Shown in pieces: positions 54,255 to 57,746 of a DNA stretch of 64,000 nucleotides. Within the stretch, counting starts at the first letter, position 1, and every line of letters begins with the position of its first letter. Source of the DNA: Staphylococcus phage AH12. The stretch lies in the sequence record OR455461.1, one strand, 5' to 3'. A model generated the notes under the pieces. It was not told the origin of the DNA. It did no database searches and saw only the letters and a program-made list of their open reading frames with translations. A program made the position numbers and the translations under genes.

Positions 54255-54455
54255 TTACTTATTCACTTTGATTGCATAATCATAAAGTATCAAAGCAGTA
54301 TTAAAAGCTATATTATCTAATTTATTAATTCCCCTTTTAATTCTACCAATTTTAGCTCTACTTATTCCAGTACATTTTTCAATTTCATAATTACTAATCT
54401 CTTTATTATTTAATAGTTTTTCTATCTCATATTTAACTTCTTCAGCTTTATTCAC
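54255..54455 (-). CDS. Small XRE-like HTH protein (GTG start); overlaps the end of the beta-prime exon 2 in another frame
   Basis: ISNYEIEKCTGISRAKIGRIKRG is a classic HTH_3-like helix-turn-helix. Confidence 0.4.
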   Translation of the reverse strand: MNKAEEVKYEIEKLLNNKEISNYEIEKCTGISRAKIGRIKRGINKLDNIAFNTALILYDYAIKVNK

Positions 54456-54657
54456 TAGCTTTAATACCTACATTTTTTGATTTAGGGTTATTTAGTAAAT
54501 AAACAGCTATTTGTGAGTCTTTATTAAGCGAGTAAGTTCTATTAAATAATCCATCATTATATGAAATTAATTGATTTACTGGATCTTGGACTTTTAACTG
54601 TTCGTATTGTTCTTCTGAAAATAGTGCTATGATGTTTAAAGTGTCACCATCATACGT
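54448..54657 (-). CDS. RNA polymerase beta-prime N-terminal fragment, exon 2 (catalytic DxDGD motif)
   Basis: Minus-strand frame (N)[35 protein letters not shown]...VGIKASE* matches E. coli [39 protein letters not shown]. Downstream of two intron cores. Confidence 0.6.
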   Translation of the reverse strand, partial: [69 protein letters not shown]

Positions 54658-54830
54658 TTATCTTAATCTATATAAATATTATCATATAGACGAGACTATA
54701 TCATTACCATTTAAGGTAGAATATATTTAGTCGTTGAACAAATTATATTAATTTGATGCTGATTAATTTAATAATCTTCTCAGCAATTAATATTCTTTTC
54801 TATAAATCTCTCAATTTAAAGCGACTATTA
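54658..54830 (-). ncRNA. Group I intron core F (second of two in the beta-prime gene); boundaries approximate
   Basis: Reverse complement carries TTAATTGCTGAGAAGATTATTAAATTAATCAGCATC (54754-54790), GTTCAACGACTAAATAT (54725-54739) and GATATAGTCT (54693-54702), plus a P9-like CGTCTATATGATAATATTTATATAG. Confidence 0.55.
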
Positions 54831-54998
54831 TTTAATCGGCCATTTGTATTAACTTCATAGAGATTTTTCTATAAAGATTAGACTATATCAAACTCATATT
54901 AGTGAGTGAATTTATTTAGTCGTTGAACAATCATCTTGATTGATGCTGATTAATTTAATAATCTTCTCAGCAATTAAAATTCTTTTGACATTATATTA
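54830..54998 (-). ncRNA. Group I intron core G (first of two in the beta-prime gene); boundaries approximate
   Basis: Its P4-P6 segment is identical to that of core F (54942-54977). GTTCAACGACTAAAT (54914-54928) and GATATAGTCT (54880-54889). Confidence 0.55.
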
Positions 54999-56120
54999 CT
55001 ATAATGAAAGGCTACCTTTATAACCCATACCAGCAAGTATATTATTACTAATACCTACTACTGATGATTCTATATCTTGAATTATATCTTTAATTTTCAA
55101 TATTTGAACAGAGCTTTCACTAATTGAGGGATTTCTATTTAAAATAACTCTCATTCCATTTTCAGTTTTATCAACTAGTTCTCTCATATATTTATATACT
55201 TTAGGATTAAATGTATCTAATGCTCTGTCTAATATTTCTTCACCTTTAGCTAAAGGAATATTTTCTGTTACATACATTAAATTTGCTAAGATAGGTTTAT
55301 ATACTTCTAAGAAGATAGTGTAATTTAATCTGATTTCATTTAATTTAAGGTCAGGTGCTGGAACAATTACTGAACGTGCAGAGAAACCAACACGACTACC
55401 CATTAGTAATTTACGAATAGTTCCACCTTTACCTTTAATATTCTCATTAATTACACGATCACTAATATTAATACTATCATTCTGAATTTTACTTAATAGA
55501 TTTAATTTTTGTAACTCCACTGAATCATCTGTATAATGTCTATCAAGTTCTTTAATACTATTACTATGTGCAATTAATAAATTATAATCTTTATTAATTT
55601 CAGAATGTCTAAAAGTTTTAGTAGCTTTGTTAACTGTAGCAGGTCTTAATTTAGGACTAAATACAGTTACATAATTTTGGAATAGTAAATCAGATAAATA
55701 CCATTGTACTACTCTATTGTAATCTTTAGTTTTACGTTTATCACGTTTAACTTCTTCTTTAAGAATTTTTAAGAAATTCTTTCTAAATTCAATTAAACCA
55801 ATATAAGAGTTATGATCATCTTCAGGTTCAATTACATTACCATTCTCATCAATAGGTTTTTCAGAACTAATAATTTCTTGGAATCTTTTATTACCAATTA
55901 ATTTTTTAACACGTTCATATCCTAATGGATTTAATATATAATTATTACCTAAATCTACAATAGCTTCATTAGTAATATTATCTGCTTCTGAATCAGGACC
56001 GAAGATTTTTTCACTGAAAATACCATCTTCAGTGAAATCTCCTTTTTTATCTATTGATTCATGATTAGTTACAACTGGAACATTTTCTAAATCCTTTTTC
56101 TTGAGTAAAAATCTAACCAT
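54999..56120 (-). CDS. RNA polymerase beta-prime N-terminal fragment, exon 1
   Basis: [10 protein letters not shown] matches E. coli [23 protein letters not shown] matches [46 protein letters not shown] matches [37 protein letters not shown] matches PVLLNRAPT. Confidence 0.75.
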   Translation of the reverse strand: [373 protein letters not shown]

Positions 56121-56123
56121 AAC

Positions 56124-57746
56124 TTAATCTTCTCCCTCTTCTACAATTTCTTTAATGTCCATAACAACTTCTTGATCATCATTTTCTTTCTCTAATTTAT
56201 CAATATTTTCAATATCTTCAATTTCTTTGATATTAGGTTTATTTTCAAAATAGAATGAACCATTTTCACCAGGATCTTTAACTTCACAGAAAGGTGTTAA
56301 AGTACGAGTAATACCTGGATTATTTGATGAAGTAGCAATCAAATCAATTCTACCGAAATAAGTGTTATTGATATTGATTGTTCTAATAGATGGTTTACTA
56401 GTGTCTACAGCTGATTGTGGACCTGCTTTAGTCATTTTAAGAATTCTAGTAAATAAGTCAATTGTATTAACTGCATTAGAATAACGTATACCGTCAGAAG
56501 TTCCAATAGTCTTCAATAGATAATCTCTAGGTACTCCTGAGAATAATCCTTTAAGATTTTTAATTGTACGTTTTTTATCTGAGAAGTTAATCATACGATA
56601 TGAAGTATCAGAGTTTTTTCTATTCAGTGGATAAGTTAAATATTCTAATACTCTTAAACGTTTATTAGCTAAATCTGTATTATCTAATAAGTTAAGATTA
56701 TCAAAGTTCTTAAACATGTATTTAACCACATGATAAGTTGATTCTTTATCTTCTGATTCTAATCGTGATATAGCTTGAGTACGACTATCTAATATACGAT
56801 CAAATGAAAGTATCATTGAATTCGCTTTATCTATTTTAGTGTCAATATTAGTTGAACCACTGAAGATAGAACCTAAAGCTTTTAACCAGAATTCTCTATC
56901 GTATATTTTATCTAATCCCGCTCTCATTCCTTTGAATAAATCTTTAATACAAAGGATCATAGAATTTCTATAACGATCATCAACGTCTAACCATTCTTTT
57001 TCAACTTTTAAAGAAAGTTTATTATTAATTTTAAAGTAATAGTAATTATCTTCTTTTTCATCATTAATATCTATTACTTTACAATGGTCTTTAATTTCTA
57101 AGAATTCAAATGTTTCATCAAATCCCATTTTTGCAACAAAGAACATAAATGCTGGAACACTCTTATTTTTATTGAACACTTCTAGATATAGAGTTCTTCC
57201 TCTTTGGACATTATTCATCTTATTATCGTCATCCATAATAGTATCTTTTTTAGAACCATTGACTGATAGTGGTTGCAATAAGTTTTTCATTACTACAGTA
57301 CTAGCTTTTGGTTTATAAAATTCAGCATCTGCTAATTGTAGAATTGGGAAAAATTTGTTATTATTAATATAGTAGTATTGACCTTCAATAAGTTCAGGGA
57401 AATCTAATTTGTGTGTATATTCTTCTTTATTACCTTCTGAATCTTCAAATTCTACTGTAATTTGAACTTCTAGTAATTTAGATTCCTCAACATTAATTTT
57501 TCTGTAATCTTTAGATTTAAGTTGTTTATCTGTCATTTGATTAAATTCATAAACCTGACTTGGTGAAACGACTTTACAATCTAAGAATTTAATTCCTTTA
57601 ATAAATTCTACTGATCTATAAATGTCTGAAATGATTTTTTCTAAACTTTCATTTTGTCTGAAATAGATTACGTCTTCGTTAAATGGTTCTTTTTTGCTAA
57701 TGTCTTCGTTGATGTTCTTTGTAACTTTACTTAAGTATTTACTCAA
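56124..57746 (-). CDS. RNA polymerase beta-subunit N-terminal fragment (split beta)
   Basis: [25 protein letters not shown] matches beta [47 protein letters not shown] matches [24 protein letters not shown]. 540 aa, about half the size of a full beta, and immediately upstream of the beta-prime N-terminal gene. Confidence 0.6.
   Translation of the reverse strand: [540 protein letters not shown]

Follow-up and report, generated by a model that had tools for sequence, protein, structure and literature searches.

The locus at 54448–57746 of the window (the whole 64,000-nucleotide stretch of Staphylococcus phage AH12 that was analysed) raises the question of how an RNA polymerase (RNAP) subunit can be made from a gene in which the codons of the catalytic DxDGD motif are not contiguous. 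An earlier note on this DNA had described a split multisubunit RNAP, with N-terminal β and β′ pieces as separate genes, in a phage close to AR9/PBS1 with about 27% GC. That placement was borne out: the window is 97% identical to phage Machias, and AH12 is a Staphylococcus aureus AR9-like jumbo phage of the AR9/PBS1-like group, with the S. aureus jumbo phages Machias, PB50, MarsHill and S6 as its relatives. GC content was measured at 26.4% for the polymerase locus and 24.6% for the whole window. Very probably, judging from the sequence comparisons below, the locus encodes the N-terminal pieces of non-virion RNAP (nvRNAP) β and β′, and the β′ gene carries two tandem group I introns without open reading frames (ORFs) that are spliced to give a 436-amino acid subunit.

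Identity of the polymerase genes

The β fragment of 540 amino acids claimed in the earlier note was found as an ORF at 56124–57746 on the minus strand (TTG start, stop codon included). In phmmer searches it matched the AR9 nvRNAP chain 7S00_c over residues 18–516 of 540 (E = 2.9e-73); it also matched PHROG 2943 (1.7e-41) and has the same length as Machias gp001, annotated as "non-viral RNA polymerase beta subunit, N-terminal". Pfam gave no meaningful match for this protein, which is therefore identified from the PDB and PHROG results. Upstream of the gene, the AR9-type early promoter TATATTAT has just an inexact AT-rich match, GATATAATATTG, in 57747–57907.

A β′-like ORF begins at 56120, four bases downstream, directly after β as had been claimed. 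Its reading as one continuous frame did not hold: the ORF from 56120 runs for 373 codons to a stop at 54999, the last seven being intron read-through, and two introns had been overlooked. The spliced β′-N protein matched AR9 nvRNAP chain 7S01_d over residues 18–424 of 436 (E = 2.7e-70), in an alignment that reaches the last residue of AR9 gp270 (426 of 426) and crosses both splice junctions unbroken, where the AR9 side reads ...ISNNLLSALSGDYDGDVLNIIPVF. These two AR9 chains are the best PDB matches for the pair, and domain and family searches, the former proposed in the earlier note, agree with them (Pfam RNA_pol_Rpb1_2 and PHROG families 2943 and 2987). On the strength of the AR9 chain matches (E = 3e-70 and 3e-73) the observed gene arrangement is far beyond chance, and by homology the locus is assigned to the β and β′ N-terminal pieces of a split multisubunit nvRNAP.

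The catalytic motif, D368-Y-D-G-D372, aligns to DYDGD of AR9 and exists in the spliced product only; it is absent from the 373-amino acid unspliced ORF. The spliced protein ends 64 residues after DYDGD, soon after the double-psi β-barrel, at a split site common to jumbo-phage and cyanobacterial β′ (PMC7598289). The end point previously given, about 70 amino acids past DxDGD, is thus upheld for the protein, but the motif itself is interrupted in the DNA. The missing C-terminal parts, expected elsewhere in the genome, are annotated far away in the 97%-identical Machias genome (nv β-C at 257832–261832 and β′ at 135794–137710), as is a specificity subunit (187568–189313). None of β-C, β′-C or the specificity subunit is annotated in the Machias stretch aligned to the window, and full-length rpoB and rpoC genes are not annotated in Machias.

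Structure of the interrupted β′ gene

All parts of the β′-N gene lie on the minus strand. Exon 1 (55023–56120) comprises 366 codons ending ...ILAGMG and is followed by a 182-nt insert (54841–55022), the 6-nt micro-exon GCCGAT (54835–54840), a 180-nt insert (54655–54834) and exon 3 (54448–54654), which consists of 68 codons, YDGDTLNI...KASE, and a stop. The micro-exon encodes Ala367-Asp368, the latter being the first catalytic Asp of DxDGD, and YDGD opens exon 3. These junctions were placed by alignment to the intron-less alleles of S6, MarsHill and LY01, which read GGTATGGGT-GCNGAY-TATGATGG; the two inserts flank GCCGAT exactly, and it is orthologous to GCTGAC, GCAGAC and GCCGAT of the intron-less alleles and aligns to "GD" in the "SGDYDGD" of AR9 gp270. 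In the DNA alignment to these alleles, removal of both inserts exactly restores the host reading frame, with a predicted junction of ...GGTATGGGT/GCCGAT/TATGATGGT... and a coding sequence of 1311 nt, the annotated length in S6 and MarsHill.

The exon 3 frame has no ATG, GTG or TTG start of its own. Its codon differences are predominantly synonymous (24 synonymous versus 6 non-synonymous against S6, and 4 versus 0 against Machias), and by these counts exon 3 is under purifying selection. The 368 nt after exon 1 contain stops in every frame and fold as two ribozymes, and on these grounds frameshifting and an intein were rejected as explanations of the interrupted frame.

By sequence and predicted fold, the inserts are group I introns. 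Against the full Rfam Intron_gpI model (RF00028), intron 1 scored 24.8 bits (E = 5.7e-4) and intron 2 scored 36.9 bits (E = 1.3e-7), neither reaching the curated gathering threshold of 50 bits. A whole-window Rfam scan at E <= 0.1 returned nothing; the introns are detectable by Rfam in a short stretch only, or by a custom covariance model (R1), which gave 127 bits for intron 1 and 123 bits for intron 2. In intron 1, P1 pairs GGGU/UA with UAGCCU and the 3′ end reads ...AAAUG; in intron 2, P1 pairs CGAU/UA with UAGUCG and the 3′ end reads ...AAACG, with a U.G pair at the 5′ splice site in both. The minimum-energy fold of intron 1 reproduces P1, P2 (with a GUAA loop) and P4–P9 (z-score −3.1), and the folding z-score of intron 2 is −3.5. 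Neither intron was found to contain a homing endonuclease ORF, the longest stop-free stretches in any frame being 27 and 32 codons.

The intron family in the window and in Machias

The two introns belong to a family of ORF-less elements of 154–206 nt and 19–27% GC, of which the covariance model finds seven in the window and 32 in the Machias genome. Across the 32 Machias copies, 92.9% of cells were paired versus 77.0% in shuffles (a level reached by 0 of 500 shuffles), slid controls were 27–43% paired, and 147 double-sided changes were observed versus 42 expected. Covariation supports P3, P4, P6 and P9, with P7 invariant; P3, which lies outside the covariance model, is 93.5% paired and has compensatory changes in each of its four pairs, and P5 is poorly supported (69% paired). 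The core is complete from P1 to P9, and several copies have GNRA loops in L2. All seven window copies have a U at −1 and a G at the 3′ end, and in Machias each of the 32 copies has the sense orientation of the annotated gene that it overlaps or adjoins.

A second gene in the window, that of the prohead protease, has the same kind of organization, with an 11-nt exon between two introns. It is in frame only with the 11-nt exon kept, and the 280-amino acid spliced product corresponds to the uninterrupted 840-nt ORFs of SA1, PALS_2 and DC4. A further micro-exon of this kind, found in Machias, is 16 nt long. A non-splicing MITE-like repeat that inactivates the gene was ruled out by the uniform sense orientation of the 32 copies, the exact restoration of frame at two independent loci and the selection on the downstream exon. 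The compact core motif was also found in 110 IMG/VR stretches, many of them on contigs of 200–400 kb.

Proposed splicing and its alternatives

Under the proposed mechanism, the β′-N pre-mRNA would contain two tandem group I introns of about 180 nt, 6 nt apart, within the sequence that encodes the Mg-binding loop (GMG^AD^YDGD). Each would rely on a P1 helix containing a U.G wobble to recognise its own 5′ splice site and would end at its terminal G. With both removed, exon 1 would be joined through GCCGAT to exon 3 in a 1311-nt frame for a 436-amino acid subunit with an intact DYDGD. Nearly all of the 6-nt exon would be engaged in RNA pairing, as its first 3 nt could form a P10 helix with intron 1 and the final 4 nt would belong to P1 of intron 2. 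The P10 pairings are predicted, with helices of just 3 bp. Splicing of both introns in vivo, whether unaided or helped, is a prediction from sequence.

The alternative that fares best concerns how this splicing would be achieved. The group I introns may be unable to self-splice and may need a helper, either a protein of the phage or host or a full-size relative that acts in trans. This reading, possible though not the favoured one, is compatible with the main explanation, from which it differs in mechanism. The small intron sizes (154–206 nt), the weak P5, the low GC content (19–27%) and the absence of the P7.1/P7.2 region of the AR9 intron speak for it, and unaided self-splicing is not guaranteed because the introns are very small and without that region. 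The smallest self-splicing group I intron usually quoted is the 205-nt intron of Azoarcus; a literature search on the smallest known group I intron was unproductive. Against dependence on a helper stand the complete P1–P9 core, the invariant P7 and the GNRA L2 loops of several copies. Jug (jumbo gut) phages carry 18.5 small group I introns per genome with a mean of about 206 nt, and such introns were seen to be spliced in metatranscriptomes, a finding that leaves protein independence unproven (PMC12880540).

Removal of the 368-nt stretch as one unit, by exon skipping or by two ribozymes acting as one, as reported for Twort orf142, would give GMG/YDGD without Ala-Asp and is considered very unlikely. 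Similar tandem group I introns are known to skip an exon of 23 nt in Twort and one of 34 nt in Coxiella (PMC10136302), and loss of 6 nt would keep the frame, but the first catalytic Asp, kept in every intron-less homologue, would be lost. The distinct P1 guides of the two introns (UAGCCU and UAGUCG) each match their own upstream exon, and differentiated P1 guide sequences suppress exon skipping (PMC10136302). Skipping of the 11-nt micro-exon or the 16-nt micro-exon of Machias would shift the frame, and skipping is therefore no general design.

It is more improbable still that β′-N is truncated or a pseudogene, with the 373-amino acid ORF alone being made and the YDGD frame decaying. The annotation of Machias gp002 as an unjoined 1122-nt coding sequence ending at a stop within intron 1 accords with such a reading, but an essential enzyme of a viable phage would then lack all three catalytic Asp residues, and tblastn found no second Machias copy. 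The codon differences in exon 3 given above, its openness over 68 codons in a 25% GC genome and the full group I anatomy of the inserts likewise argue against truncation or decay.

Class of the polymerase

The earlier note had held that the window could not tell a virion from a non-virion enzyme. This caution proved unnecessary, as β′-N is orthologous to AR9 g270, which is annotated as "non-virion RNAP subunit", and orthology therefore points to the non-virion enzyme. The idea that both genes encode a virion-packaged RNAP retains next to no credence: the best matches are AR9 non-virion enzyme chains, five other Machias loci are annotated as separate virion subunits, and the virion β′-N paralogue falls short of E = 1e-10 against the AH12 protein. 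At this level or better, tblastn found no second β′-N locus in Machias or the other listed jumbo-phage genomes, and a search of IMG/VR with the spliced protein found no β′-N relatives. As in AR9, β-N and β′-N would act together with β-C, β′-C and a promoter-specificity subunit encoded elsewhere. By analogy with that phage, the AH12 nvRNAP would transcribe late genes, and AR9 work further suggests that it would be absent from virions and use uracil-containing promoters in the template strand.

Comparison with known systems

The AR9 nvRNAP (gp105 β-N and gp270 β′-N; PDB 7S00/7S01/7UM0/7UM1) has the same split architecture, aligns nearly end to end and has a β′-N that stops at the same point after the double-psi β-barrel. 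It differs in its tblastn identity (about 37%) and its gene order, g105 and g270 being far apart in gene numbering whereas the AH12 genes are adjacent, 4 nt apart; the AH12 host is Staphylococcus. Both the AR9 g270 intron, with its HNH endonuclease g271, and the PB50 intron interrupt the same gene in the same catalytic-loop codons as in AH12, each at DYDG^D, 9 nt downstream of AH12 intron 2. The core of the PB50 intron belongs to the AH12 intron family (R1 score of 89 bits), and this intron carries a 504-amino acid endonuclease ORF; that of AR9 is missed by R1 and contains a large insertion separating P7 from P3′. AR9 and PB50 thus have single long endonuclease-bearing introns, whereas AH12 has two ORF-less introns of about 180 nt at GMG^AD and AD^YDGD. 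Literature searches on PB50 and LY01 found nothing relevant.

Tandem, near-alike group I introns around a very short exon are also found in one gene of an S. aureus phage, orf142 of Twort (I2/I3; PMC10136302). There the exon is 23 nt, whereas that of AH12 is 6 nt and encodes a catalytic residue; the AH12 introns are smaller, and their splicing is predicted from sequence. Jug phages resemble AH12 in being huge phages whose essential genes are interrupted by many small, ORF-less introns of group I, but differ in host and lineage, and the accessible part of that report describes neither tandem pairs with 6–16-nt exons nor insertion in the RNAP active site (PMC12880540). In organelles, exons of fewer than about four codons between group I/II introns "occur regularly in mitochondrial genes", and annotation routinely overlooks them (PMC10352661). 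They resemble the 6-nt exon in size and flanking introns, but the AH12 case is a bacteriophage gene, and no bacteriophage mini-exon of the organellar type was found in the literature searched.

Turnover and annotation of the introns

Earlier publications cover the split polymerase, the presence of introns in its genes, small introns at high copy number in huge phages, and mini-exons in organelles; the tandem intron arrangement, its placement within the codons for DxDGD and the truncation of the annotated Machias gene are new. Within 15 nt of an essential active-site sequence, very close relatives show three different arrangements of introns, a snapshot of rapid intron and endonuclease turnover that is relevant to intron-mediated competition of co-infecting jumbo phages (PMC11620839) and bears on the idea that intron mobility led to split RNAP genes (PMC7598289). 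In one rather doubtful scenario, the tandem mini-introns, crowded into the 15 nt that encode the catalytic loop, would be more than passive parasites: as non-autonomous derivatives of the DYDG^D endonuclease intron of PB50 and AR9, they would break up the target of that endonuclease and protect the nvRNAP gene from its cleavage when phages infect together. On that view no shorter natural exon would be known between group I introns in a phage or bacterium than this one of 6 nt, which would serve both as P10 of the first ribozyme and as P1 of the second, and occasional skipping would yield a catalytically dead β′. Lying between two 180-nt ribozymes, this exon offers a natural minimal test of how little exon context group I splicing requires, and it is relevant to the way in which inclusion of an exon is secured.

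In genomes of the AH12/Machias type, mini-exons with lengths of 6, 11 and 16 nt seem to have gone unannotated. In the public Machias record, gp002 is just the truncated 373-amino acid ORF without the catalytic motif, and a polymerase expressed or modelled from the deposited records would be a dead enzyme. The protease and vRNAP β′-mid genes likewise have fewer annotated exons than intron cores plus one.

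Gene structure of beta-prime-N

The minus strand at 54448-57746 was found by ORF listing to carry a 540-aa ORF (56124..57746; beta-N) and, four bases downstream at 56120, the start of a second ORF of 373 codons that stops at 54999. The frame ending KASE*, which an earlier note had taken as the continuation of a single beta-prime fragment, runs from 54654 to 54448(-) and contains no in-frame ATG, GTG or TTG. The outer coordinates of that note were correct, but the fragment is not a continuous gene: the two frames are parted by about 370 nt in which every frame has stops, and no minus-strand ORF of at least 20 aa lies across 54456..54973. 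This stretch holds an internal direct repeat with a spacing of 187-189 nt.

A short-range search matched the Rfam group I intron model RF00028 twice on the minus strand, over the full model each time, at 54673-54844 (36.9 bits, E 1.3e-7) and 54859-55032 (24.8 bits, E 5.7e-4), both scores falling under the curated threshold of 50 bits. Borders set by group I rules give, all on the minus strand, exon 1 at 56120..55023 (ending ...GGT ATG GGT), intron 1 at 55022..54841 (182 nt), exon 2 at 54840..54835 (GCCGAT), intron 2 at 54834..54655 (180 nt) and exon 3 at 54654..54448 (68 codons plus stop). P1 pairs GGGU^UA with UAGCCU in intron 1 and CGAU^UA with UAGUCG in intron 2 (caret, cleavage site), and in both introns a U.G wobble marks the cleavage site and the last base is G. 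Neither contains an endonuclease ORF, the longest stop-free stretches being 27 and 32 codons.

The joined CDS is 1311 nt (436 aa), the same length as the annotated CDS of S6 and MarsHill. The intron-less junction of S6, MarsHill and LY01 reads GGTATGG-GT-GCT/GCA/GCC-GAC/GAT-TATGATGG, and alignment to these alleles shows that the Ala-Asp codons are flanked exactly by the two inserts. The whole product was matched in one piece in six Staphylococcus jumbo phages by tblastn, and the alignment to AR9 gp270 is gap-free over both junctions, with the micro-exon Asp aligning with the first Asp of DYDGD. Exon 3 differs from S6 at 24 codons synonymously and 6 non-synonymously, and from Machias at 4 and 0, respectively, a sign of purifying selection on this exon. 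Beta-prime-N is predicted to be made by splicing out both introns.

Introns in split jumbo-phage RNAP genes have been published (10.1101/2020.12.14.422802; PMC7598289), as have the tandem group I introns of phage Twort, which flank a short exon (PMC10136302), organellar mini-exons (PMC10352661) and the small group I introns that huge phages have in high copy, seen spliced in metatranscriptomes (PMC12880540). The literature searched gave no description of the tandem pair in beta-prime-N or of its 6-nt exon with a catalytic Asp, and no mention that the public Machias beta-prime-N protein ends short of the active site.

Identity of the polymerase

Residues 18-516 of the 540-aa protein matched 7S00_c, the beta chain of the AR9 non-virion RNA polymerase (nvRNAP), at E 2.9e-73; the protein also matched PHROG 2943, with nothing meaningful in Pfam. 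The spliced beta-prime protein matched AR9 nvRNAP beta-prime chain 7S01_d (E 2.7e-70), PHROG 2987 (8e-51), Pfam RNA_pol_Rpb1_2 (4.4e-11) and bacterial beta-prime (about 1e-12). DNA identity is 97.3% to Staphylococcus phage Machias, 95.9% to PB50 and 82-83% to LY01, DC4, S6, PALS_2, SA1, MarsHill and Madawaska. Because the Machias and MarsHill records label both genes 'non-viral RNA polymerase beta / beta-prime subunit, N-terminal', the AR9 g270 record reads 'non-virion RNAP subunit' and the virion paralogue of beta-prime-N stays short of E 1e-10, the enzyme is, by similarity and record labels, the non-virion polymerase, a point that the earlier note had left undecided. Its proposal of a split beta/beta-prime polymerase is borne out, with the remaining subunits elsewhere in the Machias genome, where nv beta-C (257832-261832), a beta-prime gene (135794-137710) and a specificity subunit (187568-189313) are annotated, as are five virion subunit genes away from the beta-N/beta-prime-N locus. 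This split architecture is already known for the clade (10.1101/2020.12.14.422802; reviewed in PMC7598289), the beta-prime split being located just after the double-psi beta-barrel in both sources.

A family of compact introns

BLAST of introns 1 and 2 against the window revealed five further copies, and R1, a covariance model of the conserved core, found exactly 7 copies in the window (90-143 bits). In the whole genome of Machias it found 32, of which 27 scored at least 76 bits. All 32 lie on the sense strand of an overlapping or adjacent annotated gene, and 18 are placed inside RNAP subunit genes or at their ends. In the 32-copy alignment, tested for covariation with a structure of P3, P4, P5, P6, P7 and P9, 92.9% of cells were paired versus 77.0 +/- 0.7% in shuffles (0 of 500 reaching 92.9%), double-sided changes numbered 147 versus 42 expected, and slid-partner controls gave 27-43% pairing. 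P3, which the search model did not include and to which the alignment was therefore not fitted, was 93.5% paired, with compensatory changes in 4 of 4 pairs. P7 was invariant and P5 weak (69%). Folded without constraints, intron 1 gave a minimum-energy structure with P1, P2 (GUAA loop), P4, P5, P6, P7, P8 and P9 (z = -3.1); z was -3.5 for intron 2.

Among contigs of uncultivated viruses (IMG/VR loci L014-L093), the compact core motif GTTCAACGACTAAATA-N12-42-GATATAGTCT was found in 110 stretches; many of these contigs are 200-400 kb long and several have multiple copies, so the small-intron class is widespread beyond Staphylococcus phages. One of the 18 Machias cores in or at the ends of RNAP subunit genes (115635-115773, or 5635-5773 of genome stretch L010; 78.7 bits) starts at the annotated end (115638) of the virion beta-prime-N CDS and so lies just past it; an additional exon downstream may have been missed. 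Three other Machias cores (L009 19271-19417, L011 45562-45713 and L012 17935-18083) adjoin the transposase-annotated genes gp089, which carries an HHpred CasX note, gp208 and gp224, recalling IStron-type fusions of group I intron and insertion sequence.

Other genes with family introns

The prohead core scaffold/protease gene (6377-7711, plus strand) has three family introns, at 6600-6753, 7014-7192 and 7204-7362, the last two separated by an 11-nt exon, TATGACTGGGT, at 7193-7203. Its 280-aa product is in frame only if this exon is kept, and equals the 840-nt ORFs that SA1, PALS_2 and DC4 have without interruption (100% coverage, single piece). The GESGHP motif lies next to intron a, and VIPSH next to introns b and c. 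In Machias, two family introns stand in tandem in the virion RNAP beta-prime-mid gene, on either side of a 16-nt exon, ACTCAAGAAGGTGGGT, at 164809-164824 (L011 4809-4824), with which the gene reads ...GRALG-TQEGG-YQAKKLMS. The Machias record gives 3 exons for 3 cores in the protease and 2 for 2 in beta-prime-mid, one fewer than the cores imply, and appears to have missed both mini-exons.

The large terminase gene (1-1569(-), extending past the window start) has two family introns, 921-716 (206 nt) and 559-404 (156 nt), flanking a 156-nt exon that holds LFWLDEWAF and ends TTTP; its exons join in frame. The cores are spaced by about 311 nt in the window versus 181 nt in Machias. TerL could not be reconstructed in these phages (Korn et al.).

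Intron turnover and the 6-nt exon

At the catalytic loop, the window and Machias have two mini-introns, at GMG^AD and AD^YDGD (caret, insertion point). PB50, whose exon 1 protein is 99.5% identical to that of the window, has a single long intron at DYDG^D, which shares the core (R1 89 bits) and carries a 504-aa endonuclease ORF; the HNH-bearing intron of AR9 sits at exactly this position. Close relatives thus show three insertion points inside 15 nt of active-site sequence. LY01 has one 161-nt family member at another site, ILNR^NPSIS, and beta-prime-N of S6, PALS_2, DC4, SA1, MarsHill and Madawaska has no intron. The most similar pair, intron 2 and protease intron b (81% over 156 nt), occupies like targets (..CGAT^TATGATGG and ..CTGT^TATGACTGG) with guides altered to match, which suggests that the introns spread to look-alike sites.

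The last four bases of exon 2 (CGAU) would serve as the 5' strand of intron 2 P1, and its first three (GCC) could pair, as a 3-bp P10, with GGU directly 5' of the intron 1 P1 guide. These roles overlap by one base only. Intron 2 could likewise form a 3-bp P10 with exon 3 (UAU with AUA). The guides of introns 1 and 2 are not alike; in engineered tandem introns, differing guides promote exon inclusion over skipping (PMC10136302). Skipping of exon 2 would keep the frame. It does not look like a designed function, since the first catalytic Asp would be lost here and skipping of the analogous 11-nt and 16-nt exons would cause a frameshift.

Neighbouring genes

A 66-aa ORF that starts with GTG (54255-54455(-)) overlaps the beta-prime-N stop and has weak helix-turn-helix matches (HTH_26, E 4e-4, under threshold); it is missing from the Machias annotation, and the corresponding space in S6 (68 nt) is too small for it. 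A divergent 110-aa HU/IHF-like DNA-binding protein (57908-58240(+); Pfam Bac_DNA_binding, 2.4e-8) shares with beta-N a 161-nt AT-rich intergenic region, in which GATATAATATTG, upstream of beta-N, matches the AR9-type early promoter motif inexactly. A 127-aa ORF (58599-58982(-)) with a lipoprotein-like N-terminus (LLLTGC) is shared with PB50, and its place in Machias is occupied by a transposase gene of 1206 nt (272224-273429); very close relatives differ here by an indel.
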